From assembly GCA_963974355.1 (NCBI GenBank), contig CAXBDS010000003.1:8299-72298 (forward strand): a DNA stretch of 64,000 nt. The letters are read 5' to 3'. The notes under the pieces were generated by a model. The model made no database searches and had not been told where the DNA came from. It saw nothing but the letters and a program-made list of their open reading frames with translations. Shown in pieces: positions 27,032-49,228 of this stretch. Made by a program: the position numbers and the translations under genes. The stretch's first letter is position 1. Each line of letters opens with the position of its first letter. Source of the stretch: an uncultured Opitutaceae bacterium. Lineage in GTDB: Bacteria; Verrucomicrobiota; Verrucomicrobiia; Opitutales; Opitutaceae.

Positions 27032-27985
27032 TTAACTGCGCTTGAGGTGGTGCATCGTGATTTCACCGGGGCAGTTTAGGCGGGCCGGAACGCCACACGA
27101 ACCCGTTCCCACCGAAGTGTAGCCGTGCGCGCCAGCCGCCAACCATGGTCCGCGAATTCGCTCCGAGGGCTGTCCTTTCAACGGCACATGGAGCCACCGT
27201 CCGCCCGGCAGACAGAGCTGCCCGCCGTGCGTGTGACCACAAAGCACCAGATCAAAGCGATTCTCCGGTAGCTGGTCCGCAATTTCAGGTGAGTGCGCCA
27301 ACAGCACGATGCACGCGTCCTCGGCGATCCCGCGGGTCGCGGCAACCAAGTCATGCGTCTGGTAGAAATGCGGATCGTCGATGCCCGCGAACCACAGGCG
27401 TTCGCCGTGGCGCTCGATCGAAGCGCTTTCATTGAGCAATATCGGGAGCCCATCGCGCTCAAGCGTCGGAACCTGTTCGATGAAGTCGTGGTTTCCCAAG
27501 ATACCAAACCGCGGGCGATCCGGCAGCGATTGGAGGAGGCGAGTCATGTCCGTCAACGCGGGATGGAAATCCTCGTGCGTCGAGTTGCGGAAATCGCCCG
27601 TAAAGACGACGGCATCGTAGTCCAAGCCGGCGATCCGATCAATCACCACTTGGGTAAAATCCGGGTCAAGGTCCAGATGAAGGTCGGTAAGTTGCAGCAG
27701 TCGAAAATCCTCAAACGCCGAGGGCAGGCGCGGCAGGCGCCAGACGCGCTCCACCAAGCGCGGGTTCAGGTGATTCGACCGGGCACGGGTTGCGAGTCCG
27801 GTTGCGGCCAGACAAAATGCGACCACCGCATCCAGCGGAAAATAACGCTCCAGCTGAAACAGCCCGCTGCCTTGATGCGTAAACTGCGCCCAATGTCCGG
27901 CCTGGGTGGAGAGGCGACGCTCAAGGGCGGGCAGGCCCATGCGCGAGGCCAATGATTTGTAGGGTTCCGGAAGATTGGGGTTCAT
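27032..27985 (-). CDS. Calcineurin-like metallophosphoesterase
   Basis: TDLH, FTGDF, LGNHD, LAHSP and CGHTHGGQ motifs. Confidence 0.9.
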   Translation of the reverse strand: MNPNLPEPYKSLASRMGLPALERRLSTQAGHWAQFTHQGSGLFQLERYFPLDAVVAFCLAATGLATRARSNHLNPRLVERVWRLPRLPSAFEDFRLLQLTDLHLDLDPDFTQVVIDRIAGLDYDAVVFTGDFRNSTHEDFHPALTDMTRLLQSLPDRPRFGILGNHDFIEQVPTLERDGLPILLNESASIERHGERLWFAGIDDPHFYQTHDLVAATRGIAEDACIVLLAHSPEIADQLPENRFDLVLCGHTHGGQLCLPGGRWLHVPLKGQPSERIRGPWLAAGAHGYTSVGTGSCGVPARLNCPGEITMHHLKRS

Positions 27986-33606: not shown

Positions 33607-35247
33607 ATGGAAAGTGAGCGTTTTGTTCATGTTGTCGGCCATCAATGCCCCGATACCGACTCGGTGGTTTCTGCGGTGGTCGCGGCGCGACTCTTCAACA
33701 AAACGGATTCAGGAGCGCTTTATGAGGCTCTGATGCAAGGCGTGGCCAATTCTCAGACCGTGTGGCTGTTCGAACAAGCGGGCGTCCCGTTGCCACGCAT
33801 CCGGGCAGACGTGCGTCCCACCGTCGCCGAGGCCTGCTTGCCACCGCTTTCCGTCACGCCGGATCGACCGATGGGGGAGGCGCTCGATCTTCTTCATGAA
33901 CACGCGTTCAGTCTCGTTCCGGTCGCATCGGAGGAGGGGCGGTTTCTGGGCGCGGTTGGATTTTCGCTCCCGGAAGCACGCTACCTGACGCACTTCAACA
34001 TGGAGGATTTCCTCGGCTCTTTGGTGACGATCGAGGAGTTGGCTCGCGGCCTCGACTTGGTGGCAATGAATCCGGCCGCCACCACTTATCGTGATCCGGC
34101 GGAGTCCTCCCCCGCCGCATTCCGACTTTATCCTGGCGGAGGTCAGGTTAACGCCGGCGACCTGATCCTAACCGGTGCCAACGCCGCCGCAGTCACGTTT
34201 GCCGCCGAGGCCGGAGCATCTGCAGTCGTGTTCGCTGATTGTGCGGAGGCCGAGGTGCGGCGTTGGAGCCAAGGCGTCACCGTCCCCATCTATCGTTTCG
34301 CGGGATCGTTGATGGCGCTGGTCAATCAGCTGCCTCGCGCCATTCCGGTCGGCCGTTTGATGAGCCCATCCGTGCCGACCGTGCAGACGGAAGACGTCCT
34401 CGAAGATTTACGGCCGATTTTCGCCCGCACCGCCCATGCGTTGCCGGTTTTGGATGGAAACGGGCATTTATGCGGCATGATTTCGCGGCGAGAAGCACTG
34501 CAGCCGCCTCGACGTGGACTCGTGCTCGTCGATCACTTTGAACGCACCCAAACCGTCCGGGGCTGGGAAAATACCGAGATCCTGCAAATCATCGACCACC
34601 ACCGCGTGGGCGGATTGGAAACCGTCGAGCCTGCCCGTGTCGATTGCCGGCCCCTGGGCAGCACGGCCAGCATCTTGGCATTGCGCTACATCGAAGCCGG
34701 CATCGAGCCCGACGAAGCCGAGGCCACCTTGCTCTTGGGCGCATTGGTGGCCGACACCCTGTTGCTCACTTCACCCACGACCACCGCGAAAGATCGCGAG
34801 ATTGCCCGGCAACTCACGAAACTCAGCGGACTGGATCTGCCCACTTTCGGGCGGGAGGTGTTGGCTCGTAACGACGGCTTGGCCACGGACTCGGCCAGCG
34901 CGTTGGTCACGCGCGACCTCAAGGCATTTTCGCATGGCGAGGTCAGTTTCCTTCTCGGGCAAATCGAGACCGTGGACCTGTCGCTCCTCGACGCCTCCCG
35001 GGCCCGTGACTTGCGTAAGGCGCTGGACGAGGCACGCGGTCGGGCGGGTGCGGCCTTCGCCGTGACCATGGTGACGGATGTGCTGCGCGGCGTCAGCGCC
35101 TTCTTAATGGCCGATGCCGATCAAAGGCGAATGCTGCATCTTTTCGAGAATGCCGACCCATTGAATAACGTCGAATACGAGATGGTCTCACGAAAGAAAC
35201 AGCTGGTGCCCTTGGTGATGGCGCGGTTGGCCACCTATAAATCATGA
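33607..35247 (+). CDS. Family II Mn-dependent inorganic pyrophosphatase with CBS-DRTGG-CBS insert
   Basis: GHQCPDTDS, LVDH, IIDHH, DLKAF and SRKKQLVP motifs, with a central CBS/DRTGG-like region. Confidence 0.88.
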   Translation: MESERFVHVVGHQCPDTDSVVSAVVAARLFNKTDSGALYEALMQGVANSQTVWLFEQAGVPLPRIRADVRPTVAEACLPPLSVTPDRPMGEALDLLHEHAFSLVPVASEEGRFLGAVGFSLPEARYLTHFNMEDFLGSLVTIEELARGLDLVAMNPAATTYRDPAESSPAAFRLYPGGGQVNAGDLILTGANAAAVTFAAEAGASAVVFADCAEAEVRRWSQGVTVPIYRFAGSLMALVNQLPRAIPVGRLMSPSVPTVQTEDVLEDLRPIFARTAHALPVLDGNGHLCGMISRREALQPPRRGLVLVDHFERTQTVRGWENTEILQIIDHHRVGGLETVEPARVDCRPLGSTASILALRYIEAGIEPDEAEATLLLGALVADTLLLTSPTTTAKDREIARQLTKLSGLDLPTFGREVLARNDGLATDSASALVTRDLKAFSHGEVSFLLGQIETVDLSLLDASRARDLRKALDEARGRAGAAFAVTMVTDVLRGVSAFLMADADQRRMLHLFENADPLNNVEYEMVSRKKQLVPLVMARLATYKS

Positions 35248-40650: not shown

Positions 40651-41829
40651 CTAATCCCCTCCGCCGGAGGCCGCTCGGTCGCAGGCGGCTCGCATCACCC
40701 GATAAATCTGTTCGATGCGTTCGGGCGGTTCATCGACCGGATGACTCGTGAGCCAACACGCGCGCGAATTGGGCAAATCAGGATCGAATCCATGCATGCC
40801 CGGCACCCGACGTTGATTCATAAACGAAGGGGCGAAAATCACGCCTTCATTGAGCAGATAAAAGAGTTCTCCGTAGCGACGATCAGGGAACAGGCATCCC
40901 CAGCGCTTGAGCTCGTCGTCCGTGACGATTCGACCTTCGTTTCGTTGGCTGAGCCAGGCCTCAATCCGACTCCGCACGGACTGACCTCCAGGAAACCAGA
41001 AGCGAACCATCGTCGAGTCCCAGGCGGCAGCATAGTCTTTACCGTAACGCAGACCAAGCGCGTCGAAGTCCACCATCATGCGACTACAGCTCCGGGTGTC
41101 GGCCATGCCGTGATCGCTGAACACATGCCACCGCACCTCCGCATAGTGCGCGATCGCGATTGCGTTCAGCTCCCGCAACCACGTCTCGAGTCGCCCGAAC
41201 GCCGCGTCGACGGCTGCGCCGTTCGTCGTATGCGCATGCATGGTGGCGTCGAGTCCCGCGTTGAAAAGATAGGCCAAGCGAATTTCACCAGCCCGCAAGT
41301 CGCGCGCCAACGCCTCGATATTGGCCGGATCACCCGCTCGCCAATCAGACCGCACCCAAGGCAGACCCGATGCTTTCCAGTGTTCAAAAATGGCGGGTTG
41401 TCCCCCCATGATTCCGCCAGGTTCGTAGAGGTCACGTTTCTCGGTATAGTCCAGCTGGGGCAGGCGCTTGAAAGGTGTGCTATAGAGCTGAAAATATCCC
41501 GTATAGCCCTGTCGGCGCGCGACCCATCGACTGATCCGATTGCGCACCCGGTGGTGCGCCGCGACAGTTTCCGGCAGCCAGCTCAACCACCGCGCCCAGC
41601 GAAAGGGTGAGCGCGGTGGATCGTAGGCGAAAAACGAAAAATGCCCGTGTTGATATGGCAGGGTGCCGGTAAGGATGCTCGGATCGCAGGTGCAGGAGTA
41701 ACCGAACAACGTGTCGCAAGGCTGACGATACGGCAGAAGATCCGAGAGGAACTGACGACGTTGGGCCAGTTCCCAACCGAGGGCATCGACGAAGACGAAG
41801 AGATCGATTGACGGGGTGAGAGGTTTCAT
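40651..41829 (-). CDS. Alkaline phosphatase superfamily (NPP/phosphodiesterase-like) protein, no signal peptide
   Basis: FVDALG, GYSCTCDPSILTG, LDATMH, FSDHGM and GMHG metal-binding motifs. Confidence 0.8.
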   Translation of the reverse strand: MKPLTPSIDLFVFVDALGWELAQRRQFLSDLLPYRQPCDTLFGYSCTCDPSILTGTLPYQHGHFSFFAYDPPRSPFRWARWLSWLPETVAAHHRVRNRISRWVARRQGYTGYFQLYSTPFKRLPQLDYTEKRDLYEPGGIMGGQPAIFEHWKASGLPWVRSDWRAGDPANIEALARDLRAGEIRLAYLFNAGLDATMHAHTTNGAAVDAAFGRLETWLRELNAIAIAHYAEVRWHVFSDHGMADTRSCSRMMVDFDALGLRYGKDYAAAWDSTMVRFWFPGGQSVRSRIEAWLSQRNEGRIVTDDELKRWGCLFPDRRYGELFYLLNEGVIFAPSFMNQRRVPGMHGFDPDLPNSRACWLTSHPVDEPPERIEQIYRVMRAACDRAASGGGD

Positions 41830-42458
41830 CGCTGGGCGAGGGAGCGCTCAATCCGCTTGCGCAGCCGGGCAGGGAAGCGGAGGTCGCTCTCCTGGTTCCA
41901 AATCAGATCGGCATGCCGACGAGAGGGCTCGACATAACGCTCATGACCCGGTCGGGCCGCCGAAGCGTAACGAGAAATGACCTCAGCGACCGAATATCCG
42001 CGCTCCGTCGTGTCTCTTTGAATACGACGGATCAGTCGGAGATCAGCCGGCGTATGGACGAAGATTTTGAGGTCGAGCACGCGGCGCAGTTTCGCATCGG
42101 CGAGCACAAACAGTCCTTCGATCACCACCACCGAGGCCGGAGGCACGAGCGTGGTTTTCCTCGCCCGACGGTAACGGGCGAAATCGTAGTGCGGCATGGC
42201 GACCTCGTTGCCGCGGCGCAGGGAACGAACCTGTTTGAGGAGGAGCGAGGTCTCGAATGCCGCCGGGCAATCAAAGTCGATTTTCCGTCGCGCCGCGGCC
42301 GTGAGGGTGGGATGGTCGCGATAGTAGCAATCATGCGACAAGATCACGCAGCGTTCCGCCCCGAGCTCCCCCGCCAACTGGGCGGCCAAACGGCTCTTGC
42401 CCGAGGCGGTGCCTCCGGCAATCCCCACCACCAGAAGAGGACTCGCGGCGCTTTTCAC
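41826..42458 (-). CDS. udk: Uridine/cytidine kinase family protein (Tyr-type, predicted cytidine-preferring)
   Basis: GIAGGTASGKS, HDCYY, YDFARY, VIEG, RLIRRIQRD...ERG and YVEPS...ADLI motifs. Confidence 0.88.
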   Translation of the reverse strand: MKSAASPLLVVGIAGGTASGKSRLAAQLAGELGAERCVILSHDCYYRDHPTLTAAARRKIDFDCPAAFETSLLLKQVRSLRRGNEVAMPHYDFARYRRARKTTLVPPASVVVIEGLFVLADAKLRRVLDLKIFVHTPADLRLIRRIQRDTTERGYSVAEVISRYASAARPGHERYVEPSRRHADLIWNQESDLRFPARLRKRIERSLAQR

Positions 42459-42844
42459 TCGGTGGGGTGCGCCGCGAGCAATTCGCGCACGCGCGCGGCC
42501 AGTTGGGCGGGGCTGAAAGGTTTGCGAAAGAACGCCTGCACGCCAAGCGCCCGTCCCTCGGCTTCGATATGGGTTTCGCCCGCACCAGTGAGGAAAATGA
42601 TCGGGAGCAGGCGGTGGGCCGAATCTTGTCGAATCTCAGCCACCGCCGTGAGGCCGTCGACGTCCTTCATGTGCACGTCAAAAATGCCCAGCGCGACCGG
42701 TCGGGTCCGGATAATTTCCAACGCATCCAGGCCGCTGGTTGCGGTGATGATGGTCGCATCGATCGTGCGAAGGGTGAAGCCGACCAAACGCAGCATATGC
42801 GGTTCGTCGTCGACGATAAGGATGGTGGGGAGCTGCTTGGTCAT
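42455..42844 (-). CDS. Single-domain response regulator (REC)
   Basis: ILIVDDE, IFDVHM, FLTG and RKPF motifs; ATGA overlaps on both sides. Confidence 0.9.
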   Translation of the reverse strand: MTKQLPTILIVDDEPHMLRLVGFTLRTIDATIITATSGLDALEIIRTRPVALGIFDVHMKDVDGLTAVAEIRQDSAHRLLPIIFLTGAGETHIEAEGRALGVQAFFRKPFSPAQLAARVRELLAAHPTE

Positions 42845-44559
42845 CGGCAAAGAGAGGCCACCAACACGGTGCGGTCGTCGGCGATCGTGGCGGGGTCGAG
42901 TTTCAGCGCAATTGGATCCAGCAGGGCGGCGATGAACTCCGGCGGATTCAGTTCGAAACGGGATACCGCGAACTTCAGATAGATTTCCGGTCCGAGCATC
43001 AGCTCTCCATCGGGGCCGGGCAGTTCGTAACAACCATCGGTGTAAAGGACGAGTCGATCCCCCGTATCCATCGGTAAAGGCAATGCCTCATACTGGGTGT
43101 CGGGGAGGATCCCGAGTGGCACGTTTCCACCGCTAGGTTCAATGAAACGTCCATCCGGGCGAAGAATGGCGGGAGCGCAGTGCCCGGCATTCGAGAAGCT
43201 CGGGAGCGCCCCCGGCGTCGGCGGTAGAATCACCAAAATCGCGGTGATGAACATTCCGAGGCGCACGAGATCGGGAAATAATTGGCGGTTGAGGTCGCTT
43301 AGAATTACACTCGGAGACGATTCCACGGCTGAGAGGGCCCGCAACGAGCTTCGTAGCATGGCCGCAAGCAAAGCTGCGGGCACGCCTTTGCCCATCACGT
43401 CCGCCACGAGCACCATCAGCGTGCCATCATGCAAGGTCACCACATCGAAGTAGTCTCCGCCAACCTCCCGCGCCGGGCGACATTCGCCGTGAACCCACCA
43501 CCGCTCGGGGGGCGGAAAAACATCCGGCAGCAACGAGCGTTGGATACCGGACGCGACCTTGATCTCCTGTTCGAGGCGAAGCTGCTGATTACGTTCCTGC
43601 CAAAGGTTGTCCGTCGCTTTCGCGATGCCCACAAAGTCCGCCACGGCTTGGAGCAACTCCACCTCGCCACCAGAAAACGACTGCCGTTGCGCGCCGCGCA
43701 CCACCACCAGCGTCCCTAGTGTCTTGCCTCCAAACTCCACCGGCAGGACGCACAGATGACACGTATTGGCCATGGCGGCGAGAGGGTCGCCATCGGGGAG
43801 CCGATCAACGCCGCCAACCAGTGGGCGACCATCACGCACGCAGACACTCTCCGCAAAATCGCCTGACAACGGGAGCTCGGCCGGCAGGCCGATATCCAAA
43901 CCGAGCGCGTGAAGTTGCAAGGTGTCGCCGACGGTAAATCGCACAAACAGCGAATCGTGCAGGAGCATCGTCTCCAACCGCTCCCGGACCTGAGCCAGCA
44001 GCTGGTCAAAGGTCGAGCTGGTGGCGAGCAGGCCGGTGAAATGAGTCAGGCAAAGCAGCGTCTCAAAGCTGTTGGCCAAATCCTCCGTCAGGCGACCCAT
44101 GTCGTTTTCGGCGTCGGCGGCGGATTCGATACTCATGCCCGGCTGCCGCTCCACGTTCCAGCGGAGAGTCAAAGTGTGGCCGCCATCCGTATTGGAATGC
44201 TCCCAGCCGTCGGTGTTGGAATCGATAATGAAACCACCTCGGCCTCCTTCGGCGAGCGGATCTTCGGGCAGCTCAGCCCAGTTCGCCGGAGGCTGAAAAT
44301 TGCCGGGATCGCAGACCGTGACAACGACGTGATCCGACGCGACCCGCACCGAAAGCTGCACGGTCGTTTCCGGGTTTCCGGCGCAACCATGTTCGATCGC
44401 ATTGTTAACCGCCTCCACCAAGGGCAGCTCGATTCCGGAAAGTTTCTTTGCATCGACCCCGTGGATACGGCACCAGGCCAGCACACGCTTCACGGCCGGC
44501 CGGATCGACGTGAGACGCGGGGGAAGGGCGAGCTGCAACGCCTCGTCGAGTTCGTTCAT
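42841..44559 (-). CDS. RsbW-type Ser kinase / GAF-like / SpoIIE (PP2C) phosphatase fusion
   Basis: EAVNNAIEHG, CDPG and EGGRG (HATPase_c_2); central GAF-like region; VGGDYFD, VADVMGKG, YTDG and DDRT (PP2C). Confidence 0.9.
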   Translation of the reverse strand: MNELDEALQLALPPRLTSIRPAVKRVLAWCRIHGVDAKKLSGIELPLVEAVNNAIEHGCAGNPETTVQLSVRVASDHVVVTVCDPGNFQPPANWAELPEDPLAEGGRGGFIIDSNTDGWEHSNTDGGHTLTLRWNVERQPGMSIESAADAENDMGRLTEDLANSFETLLCLTHFTGLLATSSTFDQLLAQVRERLETMLLHDSLFVRFTVGDTLQLHALGLDIGLPAELPLSGDFAESVCVRDGRPLVGGVDRLPDGDPLAAMANTCHLCVLPVEFGGKTLGTLVVVRGAQRQSFSGGEVELLQAVADFVGIAKATDNLWQERNQQLRLEQEIKVASGIQRSLLPDVFPPPERWWVHGECRPAREVGGDYFDVVTLHDGTLMVLVADVMGKGVPAALLAAMLRSSLRALSAVESSPSVILSDLNRQLFPDLVRLGMFITAILVILPPTPGALPSFSNAGHCAPAILRPDGRFIEPSGGNVPLGILPDTQYEALPLPMDTGDRLVLYTDGCYELPGPDGELMLGPEIYLKFAVSRFELNPPEFIAALLDPIALKLDPATIADDRTVLVASLCR

Positions 44560-45761
44560 GGCGCGGGATGAGTCAGGCAAAGTTTAAGCAAGGAACGCCG
44601 GACCAGGCGGTCATTTTGCGGCAAGGCGGCTTGGTAAAGCGCGTGGGCCAACTCGTCGGGTTCCTCCGGCGTATGCGAACCGTGAAGATCGGCGAGCGAG
44701 AAAACGCCCGGCGGTGTGTGTGCGAGCAGCGTCCGCGTTTCCTCGGGGACCTGCGGAGCTATTTCACTCCGGGGTAAAATCCCGACCAACCTAAGGCGAC
44801 CCGCGACCACCGCGCCGAGCCAGCGAGCTCGGCGGGCCAGCAACGAACCTCGAGACCCCGTGCTCAAACGAAGCGTTCCGCCTCCCGGCAGTAAAACCTC
44901 CCGTGATATCGCCGCCCCCGCACCCAACGCCAAGAGTTGCGCCGGCAACCAGAGCAGCAGCGCCCACGCGCGTTCCCGCATCGGGGTAGACTGCGGCTGC
45001 TGCTGCATCGCAGCCGCGATAAAATCGTCGGTCAGGTCGGCCCGACCTCCGCTCATCGGGTCGAGCAACGTGGCCCCCAGTAACAGCTTATTGTGCACAT
45101 CCAAATGCGCGCCCACGAAGGTGCCTCCCGCGACCAAAGCATGTTGCAAATGGACATCGGAGCTGAGGACGCAGCCGGGCCCAACCAATGCACCGGGTCC
45201 GATCGTGCAGCCCGACTCGATCAAGGTGCCGGCCCCGATCCAATACGGCGGCACCAGCTTAATGCCGGGGGCCAGCGTGACGCGCGGACCGAGCCAGCCT
45301 TGCGGCTCGCGCTGCGTATCGAGATGAACACGTTCCGGATCACGCTTCGCCAGCCAAGCGAGGTTGAGCGCAAGCCACCATCGCACCAACGATGCGCCGT
45401 CCATCGGCGAGGCGTCGCCGGGATCGCATGCCGGCATGCGATCCATCATCTCGGCAACCAGGCCCAGCGGCGGCGACACGGGCAGTAGGCTGAGTTCTAC
45501 GGACCAATAGGCGCCGCCTTCGAGGGCCGCCCGCACCGCCGCCGGACGGTCCGGGCAATAGAGGGTGACCTGCTTGCAGCCCTGCTGCACAGCATGGTCA
45601 AGCCAGTGGGCGGCCAGCGATTGATTTCCGACTTCCCACAAAATAGGCGGGAGATCACGACGCGCTAGCGAATCGAGCACGCTCCAATCCGGCGCGACGA
45701 GCACCAATGCGGGCGCAGGCGATGAGGCGACCGCGACATCTGCGGAGGCAGTCGAACTCAC
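44556..45761 (-). CDS. Degenerate NTP-transferase + left-handed beta-helix + degenerate sugar-transferase fusion
   Basis: PILWEVGNQSLAAHWLDHA, hexapeptide repeats (WIGAGTLIESGCTIGPGALVGPGCVL), C-terminal VVAGRLRLVGILPR; GTGA start overlap inferred. Confidence 0.65.
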   Translation of the reverse strand: MSSTASADVAVASSPAPALVLVAPDWSVLDSLARRDLPPILWEVGNQSLAAHWLDHAVQQGCKQVTLYCPDRPAAVRAALEGGAYWSVELSLLPVSPPLGLVAEMMDRMPACDPGDASPMDGASLVRWWLALNLAWLAKRDPERVHLDTQREPQGWLGPRVTLAPGIKLVPPYWIGAGTLIESGCTIGPGALVGPGCVLSSDVHLQHALVAGGTFVGAHLDVHNKLLLGATLLDPMSGGRADLTDDFIAAAMQQQPQSTPMRERAWALLLWLPAQLLALGAGAAISREVLLPGGGTLRLSTGSRGSLLARRARWLGAVVAGRLRLVGILPRSEIAPQVPEETRTLLAHTPPGVFSLADLHGSHTPEEPDELAHALYQAALPQNDRLVRRSLLKLCLTHPAP

Positions 45762-48103: not shown

Positions 48104-49228
48104 ATGATGTCGCCCGCGGATTCAGGGCGCTATTTCGTCGATGACGAACCGGCTTTGGCCGCGAAGTTGGATCAATTTCTGTCGACTTTGGCGACCGATC
48201 TCGGCGCTCAACCGTGGCGCGAAGATGTCGCTGCGTTGGTTTTGGCCGGCGGATACGGTCGCGGTGAGGGAGGCGTTTTCCGCGCGAGCGAAAAGGCTGA
48301 AGCAGACCTCTACAACGACCTCGAATTTTTCCTCTTTTTGAAAAGCGGTGCCTCCACCCCGCCAGCCGCGGCGTGGTGCGAGCGATGGGAACGGGATGGC
48401 ACCGTCAAGTTGGGGATCGACGTCGAGTTCAAGCGGGATGCCGCCACCGGGCTGCAGCACGGTGCCCCGACGATGTTTTTGTATGACTTATTGCAGGGGC
48501 ATCGCGTCATTTGGGGGGATCCCGGTTGTCTCGCGCGTGCTCCGGCGCGTTTGCGTGATCCTGCCGCAATCCCGGCGGAAGAAGCGACTCGACTGCTTTT
48601 CAATCGTGGCAGCGGGTTGTGGTTTGCCCAAATGAAATTGGCCGCCGATGCGATCGACGAACTCGGTTTCGTTGAGCGAAACCAGCAAAAAGCGAAGTTG
48701 GCGATGGGCGATGCGGTGTTGGCGTTGAGCGGCCGGCATCACGCTATGTGCGAGGAACGCGACCGACGCATCGCAAGCGGCGGGTTCGCCACCCCGCCGG
48801 ACTGGGCCAAGTTGGTCGCATGGCACGACGAAGGCACGGCGTTCAAACTGCGTCCCCGCCATCGGGCGACCGGACTCGAACACCTCAAAGCGAGCCAGAC
48901 CGCATTGGTCGCGGCATGGTTGAAAACGTTTTTATGGGTGGAAGGGCGACGTCTGGACCACGTCTTTACTCAACCGCTCGATTACGTGGCCTGGGACCGT
49001 CGCTTATTTCCCAACCGTGCTCGTTGGCGCAACGTCGCGGTGCATGCGCGTGATCGATTCAAACGCGGCGAAATGTTGCGCGCGGTCACTGACTATCCGC
49101 GAGCCACATTGCAACGCGCGTTGGTCGCCGCGTTGGTCGATGGCACCGCGGCGGGAGCCCGTTGCATGGGGGTAACGGCCACTGATTTCGACACCACTTA
49201 CGCCCGCTGGTGGGCACGCTACAACTAG
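48104..49228 (+). CDS. Pol-beta superfamily nucleotidyltransferase-like protein of unknown function
   Basis: LVLAGGYGRGEG followed by YNDLEF and DVEF acidic motifs, then a helical domain; 1 nt after the STAS stop. Confidence 0.6.
   Translation: MMSPADSGRYFVDDEPALAAKLDQFLSTLATDLGAQPWREDVAALVLAGGYGRGEGGVFRASEKAEADLYNDLEFFLFLKSGASTPPAAAWCERWERDGTVKLGIDVEFKRDAATGLQHGAPTMFLYDLLQGHRVIWGDPGCLARAPARLRDPAAIPAEEATRLLFNRGSGLWFAQMKLAADAIDELGFVERNQQKAKLAMGDAVLALSGRHHAMCEERDRRIASGGFATPPDWAKLVAWHDEGTAFKLRPRHRATGLEHLKASQTALVAAWLKTFLWVEGRRLDHVFTQPLDYVAWDRRLFPNRARWRNVAVHARDRFKRGEMLRAVTDYPRATLQRALVAALVDGTAAGARCMGVTATDFDTTYARWWARYN

Follow-up and report, generated by a model that had tools for sequence, protein, structure and literature searches.

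A Tyr-type Udk/UCK kinase with an Arg/Gln-swapped base pocket in an Opitutaceae polysaccharide locus

The closest described systems to the kinase considered here are the Thermus thermophilus enzyme ttCK and human UCK2, for which the use of uridine follows a single-residue rule. Wild-type ttCK has undetectable activity on uridine, and its Y93H mutant reaches 2.6e4 M-1 s-1 on this nucleoside; conversely, UCK2 H117Y falls from 9.0e4 to 9.6e2 M-1 s-1 on uridine, a loss of about 100-fold, and retains its cytidine activity (PMC5614712). The rule of His versus Tyr, which the first-pass annotation of the present DNA had invoked, is thus borne out by the published values. Among 19 replacements tested, uridine use was allowed by His only, plus weakly by Gln, and Arg or Lys at position 93 of ttCK abolished all activity; the authors add that why loss of the His abolishes uridine binding is not fully explicable (PMC5614712). 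The same paper mentions, as data not shown, that ttCK R152L had lowered cytidine activity (PMC5614712). The role of UCK2 Asp62 as the catalytic base has been described (PMC9163393), as have the roles of the other UCK active-site residues whose equivalents are discussed below (PMC9163393, PMC8217354), and in PMC8217354 five residues of UCK2 are called crucial, among them His117, Arg176 and Gln184.

The window, i.e. the whole 64,000-nucleotide stretch of an uncultured Opitutaceae bacterium that was analysed, encodes a genuine relative of the uridine/cytidine kinases (Table 1), on the minus strand, which the first-pass annotation had left unstated. The protein passes the cut-offs of Pfam PF00485 (129 bits, cut-off 22) and of the NCBIfam uridine kinase model NF004018 (215 bits, cut-off 180), and with 201 bits it lies below the cut-off of 220 for TIGR00235. 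In a phmmer search of the PDB sequences, residues 4-187 matched residues 3-184 of the T. thermophilus uridine kinase 3asy (E 5e-45), and residues 7-192 matched human UCK2 (E 4e-35). A search of its own genome returned one match, which makes it the sole PRK/Udk-family gene there and rules out that it is an EPS-dedicated paralogue kept beside a housekeeping copy. Family searches found cytidine deaminase (cdd) and UPRT (upp) in the same genome, so uridine or uracil could be salvaged by another route; both searches also match the control genome of Thermus thermophilus. The cmk search of the own genome gave two adjacent sub-threshold matches, of 96 and 36 bits, for which a frameshift or an assembly error could account.

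Table 1. Kinase gene, its marker residues and neighbouring genes (positions in the window)
Feature	Position	Strand	Details	Basis
Udk/UCK-family nucleoside kinase CDS	41826..42458	minus	210 aa, GTG start	Pfam PF00485 2e-37
P-loop GGTASGKS	42393..42416	minus	residues 15-22	fits GxxxxGK[ST]
Asp43	42330..42332	minus	homologue of catalytic base UCK2 Asp62	alignment
FDCP	42264..42275	minus	residues 62-65; Asp63 corresponds to ribose-binding UCK2 Asp84	alignment
YDFARY beta-hairpin motif	42171..42188	minus	residues 91-96; Tyr96 codon TAC 42171-42173	
Tyr155 (TAT)	41994..41996	minus	place of base-contacting Arg (UCK2 Arg176, ttCK Arg152)	Arg in 232/269 relatives
Arg163 (CGT)	41970..41972	minus	place of UCK2 Gln184	Gln in 220/269 relatives
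Cytoplasmic NPP-like (alkaline-phosphatase superfamily) phosphodiesterase/pyrophosphatase	40651..41829	minus	392 aa; ATG overlaps udk stop (ATGA)	Pfam PF01663
Stand-alone receiver-domain (REC) gene	42455..43033	minus	TGA overlaps udk GTG (GTGA)	
HATPase_c_2 - GAF - SpoIIE(PP2C) kinase/phosphatase	42841..44580	minus		domain search
Pol-beta-fold nucleotidyltransferase-like (ANT-like) p48104	48104..49228	plus	invariant GGYGRGEG and ND.D	fold search

The first-pass annotation had placed the last residue of YDFARY at the position of ttCK Tyr93 and UCK2 His117, and had proposed an alignment to these two enzymes as a check. In that alignment Tyr96 falls exactly there, without gaps (MPHYDFARYRR in the window kinase, MPVYDFRAYTR in ttCK, IPVYDFVSHSR in UCK2, and RAHTR in the Y93H mutant 3w8r), and the His that UCK2 requires for uridine is absent. 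The residue is not a sequencing slip, since it is shared by two homologues that are 99% and 66% identical (P0003, which represents the 90% cluster of the window protein itself, and P0004). At position 96 the near matches have His 95 times, Tyr 16 times (13%), Ser 9 times and Asn once; among 50%-identity cluster representatives there are 118 His, 7 Cys, 5 Ser, 5 Tyr (about 3%), 4 Asp, 3 Phe and others. Tyr at the specificity position is therefore a recurrent minority variant, already known, and by itself would not surprise a specialist. The annotation had also drawn attention to FDCP in place of the usual FDHP, and this motif is indeed present; in the column of Cys64, 218 of the 269 relatives aligned have His and 7 have Cys. 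As a signal of specificity it was rejected, being uninformative: relatives with His96 have C, E, Q, D, S, R or I in this column, and Udks from the same genus combine FDCP with His96.

The residues for ATP, ribose and phosphate binding and for catalysis are intact. The P-loop, Asp43 (unchanged in all 121 near relatives), Tyr46 at the end of the SHDCYY motif (residues 41-46), Asp63, Tyr91, Phe93, Arg98, Arg145, Arg148 and Arg153 are all conserved. In the gap-free alignment to UCK2 (offset 21), the ligands of the ribose 2'/3'-OH, Asp84 and Arg166, become Asp63 and Arg145, the phosphate-binding Arg169 and Arg174 become Arg148 and Arg153, and Tyr112 and Phe114 of the base-binding hairpin are kept as Tyr91 and Phe93.

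The base pocket itself is changed at more than the hairpin, as three of the five crucial UCK2 residues (His117, Arg176 and Gln184) are replaced. The first-pass annotation had missed the replacement of the Arg176 and Gln184 equivalents, by Tyr155 and Arg163. Positions 155 and 163 together form an Arg/Gln-swap signature, which marks a divergent clade of Opitutaceae Udks whose genes are coupled to that of a cytoplasmic NPP-like phosphodiesterase. Throughout the 26 members of this clade Arg155, Gln163, Met171 and Asn61 are replaced, and position 96 is His, Tyr or Ser; Gln155 and Arg163 occur together in 13-14 rows of the alignment. This clade-wide rearrangement may be a simple move of an arginine or a reshaped specificity. 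A strict coupling of Tyr96 to the loss of Arg155 was ruled out, since 18 relatives with Tyr96 retain both Arg and Gln. The end branch of the window protein (0.49) is the longest of its 8-member sub-clade, the others measuring 0.03-0.24, and its sisters there have Ser at position 96 and a hairpin rewritten as YRFDISRR, which suggests an ongoing change of specificity and not a settled cytidine kinase. The Tyr96/Tyr155/Arg163 triple is also found in a second Opitutaceae EPS-locus Udk (G423; L114:1357-2043, minus strand). An AU test rejected a common origin of the triple (p 0.0004 and 9e-6, for groups that were named after the tree had been seen), and as judged from these trees the triple has evolved twice independently among the EPS-locus Udks of Opitutaceae, which was unexpected.

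The udk gene is overlapped by 4 nt on both sides, in a chain running from the receiver gene through the kinase to the phosphodiesterase, and from this arrangement it is read as translationally coupled within a large polysaccharide/signalling locus, in line with the EPS operon proposed in the first-pass annotation. The receiver gene probably starts near 42844, since its REC domain begins at residue 71 of the longest open reading frame. The downstream phosphodiesterase has no signal peptide and is hence cytoplasmic. Sequence searches with it gave no match in the PDB or NCBIfam, and Foldseek with its AF2 model (pLDDT 94) returned the Xanthomonas NPP (2gsn/7mw8, E 3e-17) as best match, followed by ENPP1/3/5/6 and PhnA. 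Seven residues are invariant in its family (D15, T40, D194, H198, D239, H240 and H346), and these Asp, His and Thr would occupy the two-metal site and the Thr nucleophile position of NPP. For p48104, sequence searches gave no PDB match, and no Pfam match even at E 1.

Gene context was compared across GTDB representative genomes, and there the EPS context of udk is real and wider than the first-pass annotation had claimed. Adjacency of udk and the phosphodiesterase gene recurs in six other Opitutaceae genomes (L010-L014 and L018); in three of these (L012-L014) a udk-phosphodiesterase fusion was considered and rejected, the long spanning ORFs being open alternative frames of GC-rich DNA. Of the 49 genomes that have udk, 33 also have the phosphodiesterase gene, compared with 96 of 401 genomes overall, and the coupled phosphodiesterase is far more conserved than Udk (77-80% versus 57-60% identity). 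Homologues of p48104 lie directly upstream of the phosphodiesterase gene in many other Verrucomicrobiota. With the window protein as query, udk matches were found in 4 of 16 genomes of the same genus, and the SpoIIE-REC-phosphodiesterase unit is conserved in genomes of the same genus and order without udk at that place. Across the order and the phylum udk lies inside homologous polysaccharide/signalling loci, and the orthologues there are mostly His/Arg/Gln (His-type in G326, G341, G133, G201, G270 and L044). Within 1.5 kb of the phylum's canonical Tyr-type Udks, none of the EPS-locus genes of the window has a homologue. That udk is linked to the polysaccharide locus is a trait conserved among the Udk genes of Verrucomicrobiota generally, and is independent of the Tyr.

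The best explanation for these findings as a whole, on which we stand evenly divided, is that the sole pyrimidine-ribonucleoside kinase of the Udk/UCK type in this genome is, by virtue of Tyr96, a predicted cytidine kinase without uridine use and with a local salvage role. Such an enzyme would be a pyrimidine-ribonucleoside kinase with an intact predicted catalytic set, in which Tyr96 would leave no productive binding of uridine and cytidine would be converted to CMP, as by ttCK and UCK2 H117Y. Because position 96 is Tyr and not His, uridine would be excluded and cytidine is probably preferred. The most economical role would be pyrimidine salvage and nucleotide housekeeping local to the locus, next to the NPP-like enzyme, a CBS-pyrophosphatase, a metallophosphoesterase and the ANT-like nucleotidyltransferase of the locus. 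The cytidine preference proposed in the first-pass annotation is accordingly plausible as far as the Tyr lies at the right place, but three of the listed key pocket positions differ and not one. It is less secure than for ttCK because Arg176/Arg152 is here Tyr155 and Gln184 is Arg163, and the transfer of the rule is weakened because the enzymes from which it was derived retain Arg152/Arg176 and Gln184. Since ttCK R152L was reported with lower cytidine activity, the binding of cytidine itself may also be altered.

The same pocket could instead mean that the clade has shifted its substrate altogether, to a nucleoside that is modified or non-canonical, or else to some other ribosyl compound connected with the NPP-like and nucleotidyltransferase-like enzymes encoded nearby, bound through an aromatic pocket (Tyr46, Tyr91, Phe93, Tyr96 and Tyr155) and the relocated Arg163. 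The replacement of all four residues in the whole clade, the drift of position 96 between His, Tyr and Ser beside a far more conserved phosphodiesterase, the second origin of the triple and the position of udk next to the ANT-like gene in L110 and L121 all point in this direction. We nevertheless regard it as unlikely, since the ribose residues Asp63 and Arg145 and the hairpin Tyr91 and Phe93 are intact, the uridine-kinase cut-off of NF004018 is passed, the co-occurrence of Gln155 with Arg163 makes the Arg/Gln exchange look compensatory, and no particular substrate suggests itself. An ordinary dual uridine/cytidine kinase, in which another donor such as Arg163 replaces the hydrogen bond of His117 to uracil O4, would suit the only Udk-family gene of a genome, and with Arg163 a basic side chain has indeed been gained close to where the base binds; the incompletely explained loss of uridine use upon removal of the His also leaves room for it. 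Yet basic residues at ttCK position 93 abolished activity, uridine use was restored by His or Gln only, and H117Y alone cost UCK2 about two orders of magnitude, which makes dual use improbable. That the gene is a decaying or non-catalytic copy retained by its position in the operon would fit its long terminal branch and the dispensability of udk in most genomes of the genus, but with an open reading frame, an intact P-loop, catalytic Asp and full set of phosphate-binding Arg, and the same pocket in the near-identical and the 66%-identical homologue, this is the remotest of the explanations.

It was further proposed in the first-pass annotation that a cytidine-preferring kinase serves CMP- or CDP-activated building blocks of the polysaccharide pathway. 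The translational coupling of the kinase within the locus and the nucleotidyltransferase-fold protein encoded there would speak for such a role. Among the 52 ORFs of the window that were scanned, we found no cytidylyltransferase (PF02348, PF01128, PF01467), no TagF/LicD, no Kdo- or sialyl-transferase and no CDP-alcohol or CMP-sugar transferase family, which argues against it. The transferases that do occur belong to GT4, GT2 and GT26 (WecG), alongside a priming enzyme of the Bac_transf type, and members of these families are known to use UDP-, GDP- or ADP-sugars. Loci of the same genus have the SpoIIE-REC-phosphodiesterase unit with no udk at all. Because the EPS-locus Udks are mostly His/Arg/Gln, with His-type enzymes in the orthologous loci listed above, the canonical Tyr-types are not EPS-linked and the window lacks these CMP/CDP families, the proposal finds no support here and we consider it very improbable. 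A more complex scheme could be envisioned where the kinase is no housekeeping salvage enzyme but a dedicated part of a conserved nucleotide circuit of Verrucomicrobial polysaccharide loci, with the ANT-like nucleotidyltransferase as writer, the NPP-like phosphodiesterase as eraser, and Udk, the CBS-pyrophosphatase and the metallophosphoesterase for supply and recycling. The triple would then mark a switch of this circuit, either to nucleotides of cytidine or to some non-canonical nucleoside, for tagging the polymer or a regulatory protein; we hold this scheme to be rather doubtful.

If the cytidine kinase prediction is true, the enzyme would be the second case in nature, after ttCK, on which the single-residue uridine rule is put to the test, this time in a different pocket background, and the twice-evolved Tyr/Tyr/Arg pocket would offer a clean mutational series for the other determinants of pyrimidine choice in UCK enzymes, a choice that bears on the activation of nucleoside analogues and on enzymatic NTP synthesis. 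At the level of the locus, a nucleoside kinase, an NPP-like enzyme and an ANT-like nucleotidyltransferase accompany a polysaccharide/partner-switching locus across the phylum, and these co-travelling genes point to a link between the way Verrucomicrobiota handle nucleotides and their production of slime.

Among known systems, the best PDB sequence match is ttCK of T. thermophilus HB8 (TTHA0578; 3ASY, 3ASZ and 3W34, with Y93H as 3W8R), which has a Km of about 70 uM, is similar in length and fold class and shares the Tyr of the hairpin, the P-loop, the catalytic Asp and the ribose and phosphate ligands. It differs in keeping Arg152 and the following Gln (ERGR...QY), where the window kinase has Tyr155 and Arg163 (ERGY...RY), and in the window kinase Met at position 171 is moreover replaced by Gly, and the His of FDHP by Cys. 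The ttCK gene is not known to lie in a polysaccharide locus. Human UCK2 (1UDW, 1UEJ and 6PWZ) reproduces the Tyr state in its H117Y mutant, whereas wild-type UCK2 carries His117, Arg176 and Gln184 and, being extended at both the N- and the C-terminus, exceeds the window kinase by about 40 aa. The canonical Tyr-type Udks (such as the Kiritimatiellia/Opitutae MAG proteins P0084 and P0091, and the Verrucomicrobial L095-L098) share the Tyr at the specificity position but, unlike the window kinase, retain Arg155, Gln163 and Met171 as in ttCK, and they belong to separate clades. The phosphodiesterase downstream has its fold in common with the NPP of Xanthomonas axonopodis (2GSN; TM 0.63-0.65), from which it differs by an identity of only 13-19% and by its cytoplasmic location.

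The window kinase, encoded by udk (see the table), is matched by the Pfam PRK/uridine kinase profile PF00485 (2e-37) and by the NCBIfam uridine-kinase equivalog NF004018 (215 bits against a cut-off of 180), and scores 201 bits, under the cut-off of 220, with the older profile TIGR00235. A profile search found it to be the sole PRK/Udk-family gene of its own genome (5.57 Mb in 385 contigs, estimated completeness 96%). Its product carries the motifs GGTASGKS (15-22), SHDCYY (41-46), FDCP (62-65) and YDFARY (91-96). When all PDB sequences were searched with phmmer, the top match was the Thermus thermophilus uridine kinase ttCK (3asy, E 5e-45), followed by its Y93H mutant (3w8r) and then by human UCK2 (E 4e-35). 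The hairpin region reads MPHYDFARYRR in the window kinase, MPVYDFRAYTR in ttCK, RAHTR in 3w8r and IPVYDFVSHSR in UCK2, and because no gap lies near it, Tyr96 is the homologue of ttCK Tyr93 and UCK2 His117. The first-pass annotation had put the Tyr of YDFARY at this very position, and the gap-free alignments to UCK2 and the Thermus enzyme agree.

Features of the kinase gene and of the surrounding locus, in window coordinates
Feature	Coordinates	Strand	Remarks
udk	41826-42458	minus	open frame, GTG start, 210 codons, TGA stop
Tyr96 codon	42171-42173	minus	TAC; placed by phmmer alignment
Phosphodiesterase-like gene (PDE)	40651-41829	minus	
p48104	48104-49228	plus	374 aa; GGYGRGEG and ND.D invariant in family
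CBS-domain DHH/DHHA2 protein (family II pyrophosphatase type)	33607-35247	plus	conserved locus member
Calcineurin-like metallophosphoesterase	27032-27985	minus	conserved locus member
Locus transferases	27-63 kb		GT4 genes, GT2, two WecG-STAS fusions, Bac_transf priming enzyme
Other polysaccharide genes	27-63 kb		hexapeptide-repeat protein, flippase, two Wza-like exporters, weak Wzz-like protein
Signalling genes	27-63 kb		HATPase_c_2-GAF-SpoIIE, three hybrid kinases, H-NOX, FIST, sigma-54 activator

A Tyr at the specificity position is not very unusual. The column holds His in 95, Tyr in 16, Ser in 9 and Asn in 1 of 121 near relatives (90%-identity collection), and across 148 cluster representatives at 50% identity His in 118, Cys in 7, Ser and Tyr in 5 each, Asp in 4, Phe in 3 and single others. 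Tyr is scattered over several separate places in the tree of near relatives, and a canonical Tyr-type Udk occurs in four Verrucomicrobial species representatives (L095-L098). FDCP, which had been picked out as an oddity, lies in a variable column (the His of FDHP is present in 218 of 269 aligned relatives) and is paired with His96 in Udks of the same genus, so it is uninformative on specificity.

In ttCK, Tyr93 was exchanged for all 19 other residues, and His alone gave uridine activity comparable to that on cytidine, with Gln giving about 1/30 (Tomoike et al. 2017, PMC5614712). The H117Y mutant of UCK2 kept its cytidine activity (4.7e4 M-1 s-1), and its uridine activity went from 9.0e4 to 9.6e2 M-1 s-1; the authors proposed that specificity in the family is predictable from this single residue (PMC5614712). 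They also report that ttCK Arg152 hydrogen-bonds the base and that cytidine activity is lower in R152L (PMC5614712), while the residues named as crucial in UCK2 are His117, Arg166, Arg169, Arg176 and Gln184 (PMC8217354). Three of these five are replaced in the window kinase, which departs from its 269 relatives at conserved columns 61, 64, 76, 155, 163, 168 and 171. By gap-free alignment, residue 155 corresponds to UCK2 Arg176 and ttCK Arg152, and residue 163 to UCK2 Gln184; the former is Tyr (Arg in 232 of the 269) and the latter Arg (Gln in 220). Further departures are Asp for Asn at 61, Cys for His at 64 and Gly for Met at 171. The earlier reading of Tyr96 as a mark of cytidine specificity thus applied the published rule correctly (PMC5614712), but is weakened by Tyr155 and Arg163; with Tyr96 set in a changed pocket, cytidine specificity becomes less secure, and we regard it as a fair prediction, though not a secure one.

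A clade of 26 proteins (SH-aLRT 99) shares the substitutions at 155, 163, 171 and 61, with Arg at 163 and either Gln, His or Tyr at 155. Its largest subgroup has a literal Arg/Gln exchange between the two positions, which suggests that the arginine was relocated rather than lost. His96 is gone in an eight-member sub-clade within it (support 98), where Tyr96 occurs in the window protein, which has the longest terminal branch, in its 99% twin and in the relative P0004. Six others have Ser at 96 and a hairpin rewritten to YRFDISRR. In these sisters (P0010, P0011, P0012, P0014, P0016 and P0017; also L018:3-365), where the specificity residue is thus Ser, Arg also replaces the hairpin Asp, making them another putative pocket variant. 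All 18 of the other Tyr96 relatives have Arg and Gln as in ttCK.

The phylum sample contained a second case of Tyr96, Tyr155 and Arg163, in the Udk of genome G423, also of the Opitutaceae (L114:1357-2043, minus), which shares only 38% identity with the window protein but 47.5% with the enzyme of G270. The latter (L116:1477-2181, plus) is its positional orthologue, both lying in the order GT4-udk-Bac_transf, and carries His/Arg/Gln; in the tree the two cluster together. The AU test rejected a common origin, both for placement of the G423 protein with the window's clade (p 0.0004) and with the Tyr/Tyr/Arg rows (p 9e-6), the G423 branch being long and the groups having been named once the tree was known. 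The triple thus arose independently in G423, and its recurrence suggests that the three residues may form one functional configuration.

The udk gene overlaps both neighbours by 4 nt, its GTG overlapping the stop of an upstream receiver-domain gene (GTGA) and its stop the ATG of the downstream 392-aa PDE gene (ATGA). The PDE has a weak Pfam Phosphodiest match and no match in PDB or NCBIfam by sequence, and its family is strongly conserved (top 120 matches 57-82% identical). Its AF2 model (pLDDT 94) resembles Xanthomonas NPP, ENPP1/3/5/6 and phosphonoacetate hydrolase (E down to 3e-17, TM ~0.65). The invariant columns D15, T40, D194, H198, D239, H240 and H346 we take to be the NPP two-metal site and Thr nucleophile. 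Since the first strand begins at residue 5, there is no signal peptide, and the PDE is predicted to be a cytoplasmic NPP-fold enzyme. Same-genus NPP-like copies in G005, G012 and G003 (L050, L059, L058) have in-frame stops or are fragments, which suggests that the gene may be under loss in part of the genus.

Housekeeping genes fill window positions 1-27 kb, and 27-63 kb is a polysaccharide/signalling locus, five of whose enzymes handle nucleotides or phosphate and play no obvious part in Wzx/Wzy synthesis. The udk-PDE pair, with ends touching or overlapping, is found again in L010-L014 and L018, six species representatives of the Opitutaceae, at 77-80% identity for PDE and 57-60% for udk. In polysaccharide loci of same-genus and same-order (Opitutales) genomes, SpoIIE(PP2C)-REC-PDE forms a conserved unit without an intervening udk (L050-L054, L056, L067-L072), so udk was inserted upstream of PDE in one lineage. 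It is dispensable in the genus, a search with the window kinase finding it in 4 of 16 genomes, in copies from another Udk lineage. Four genomes of another Opitutales family (G326, G341, G133, G201; L124, L125, L127, L128) share the order H-NOX, hybrid kinase, SpoIIE, NPP-like PDE, CBS-DHH pyrophosphatase, GT4, GT2, GT4, homologue of the window locus gene p36584, udk, sometimes followed by the metallophosphoesterase; in the window, the genes of this block are dispersed over 27-48 kb. The order is GT4-udk-Bac_transf-hexapeptide-PDE in G270 and kinase-udk-Bac_transf...SpoIIE-REC-flippase in a Limisphaerales genome. Within 1.5-kb flanks, 15 of 29 Verrucomicrobial udk loci have a homologue of a window-locus gene, and in 401 genomes sampled evenly from the phylum udk was present in 49, PDE in 96 and both in 33, counts inflated by kinship. 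The placement of udk in an EPS operon therefore holds, and the association is broader than first supposed.

From a cytidine-preferring kinase in this placement the first-pass annotation had taken a hint of CMP/CDP-linked chemistry, which is not supported here. His96, Arg155 and Gln163 are present in every one of the EPS-linked Udks of G326, G341, G133, G201, G270 and L044, so the udk-locus association is older than the Tyr and independent of it; no locus gene was found within 1.5 kb of the phylum's canonical Tyr-type Udks. A scan of 52 window ORFs found no cytidylyltransferase, CDP-alcohol transferase, TagF/LicD or Kdo/sialyl-transferase family, and enzymes of the GT4, GT2, GT26 and Bac_transf types are known to work with UDP-, GDP- or ADP-sugars. 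An opening is left by p48104, which had no sequence match in Pfam or PDB. Its AF2 model (pLDDT 90) resembles kanamycin/aminoglycoside nucleotidyltransferases, LinB, HalB and MntA, and it is predicted to be a Pol-beta-fold nucleotidyltransferase. Many other families of the phylum (L075, L076, L083, L086, L087 and others) have a homologue immediately upstream of PDE, and the two proteins look like a functional pair; homologues also adjoin udk in L110 and L121, yet nothing ties p48104 to cytidine. A plain reason for a salvage kinase in a polysaccharide locus is that pyrimidine supply is reported to limit capsule synthesis in other bacteria (PMC5863508).

The window's own genome encodes a tetrameric-type cytidine deaminase (cdd, 137 bits, over cut-off) and a uracil phosphoribosyltransferase (upp, 224 bits). 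Its cytidylate kinase gene (cmk), outside the window (G000:C6:56226-56845), gave two adjacent matches in different frames, both under the family cut-off, which may reflect a frameshift or an assembly error. A cytidine-only kinase alongside cdd and upp would match the arrangement of Thermus, whose control genome both profiles also hit. The putative NPP-coupled Udk clade with the Arg/Gln swap, the Tyr/Tyr/Arg pocket, apparently evolved twice, and the recurrent linkage of Udk to such loci across Verrucomicrobiota are new, the papers searched holding no prior account of any of the three. The window lineage shares with ttCK the known Tyr, but in the window lineage this Tyr sits in an unstudied pocket formed with Tyr155 and Arg163.
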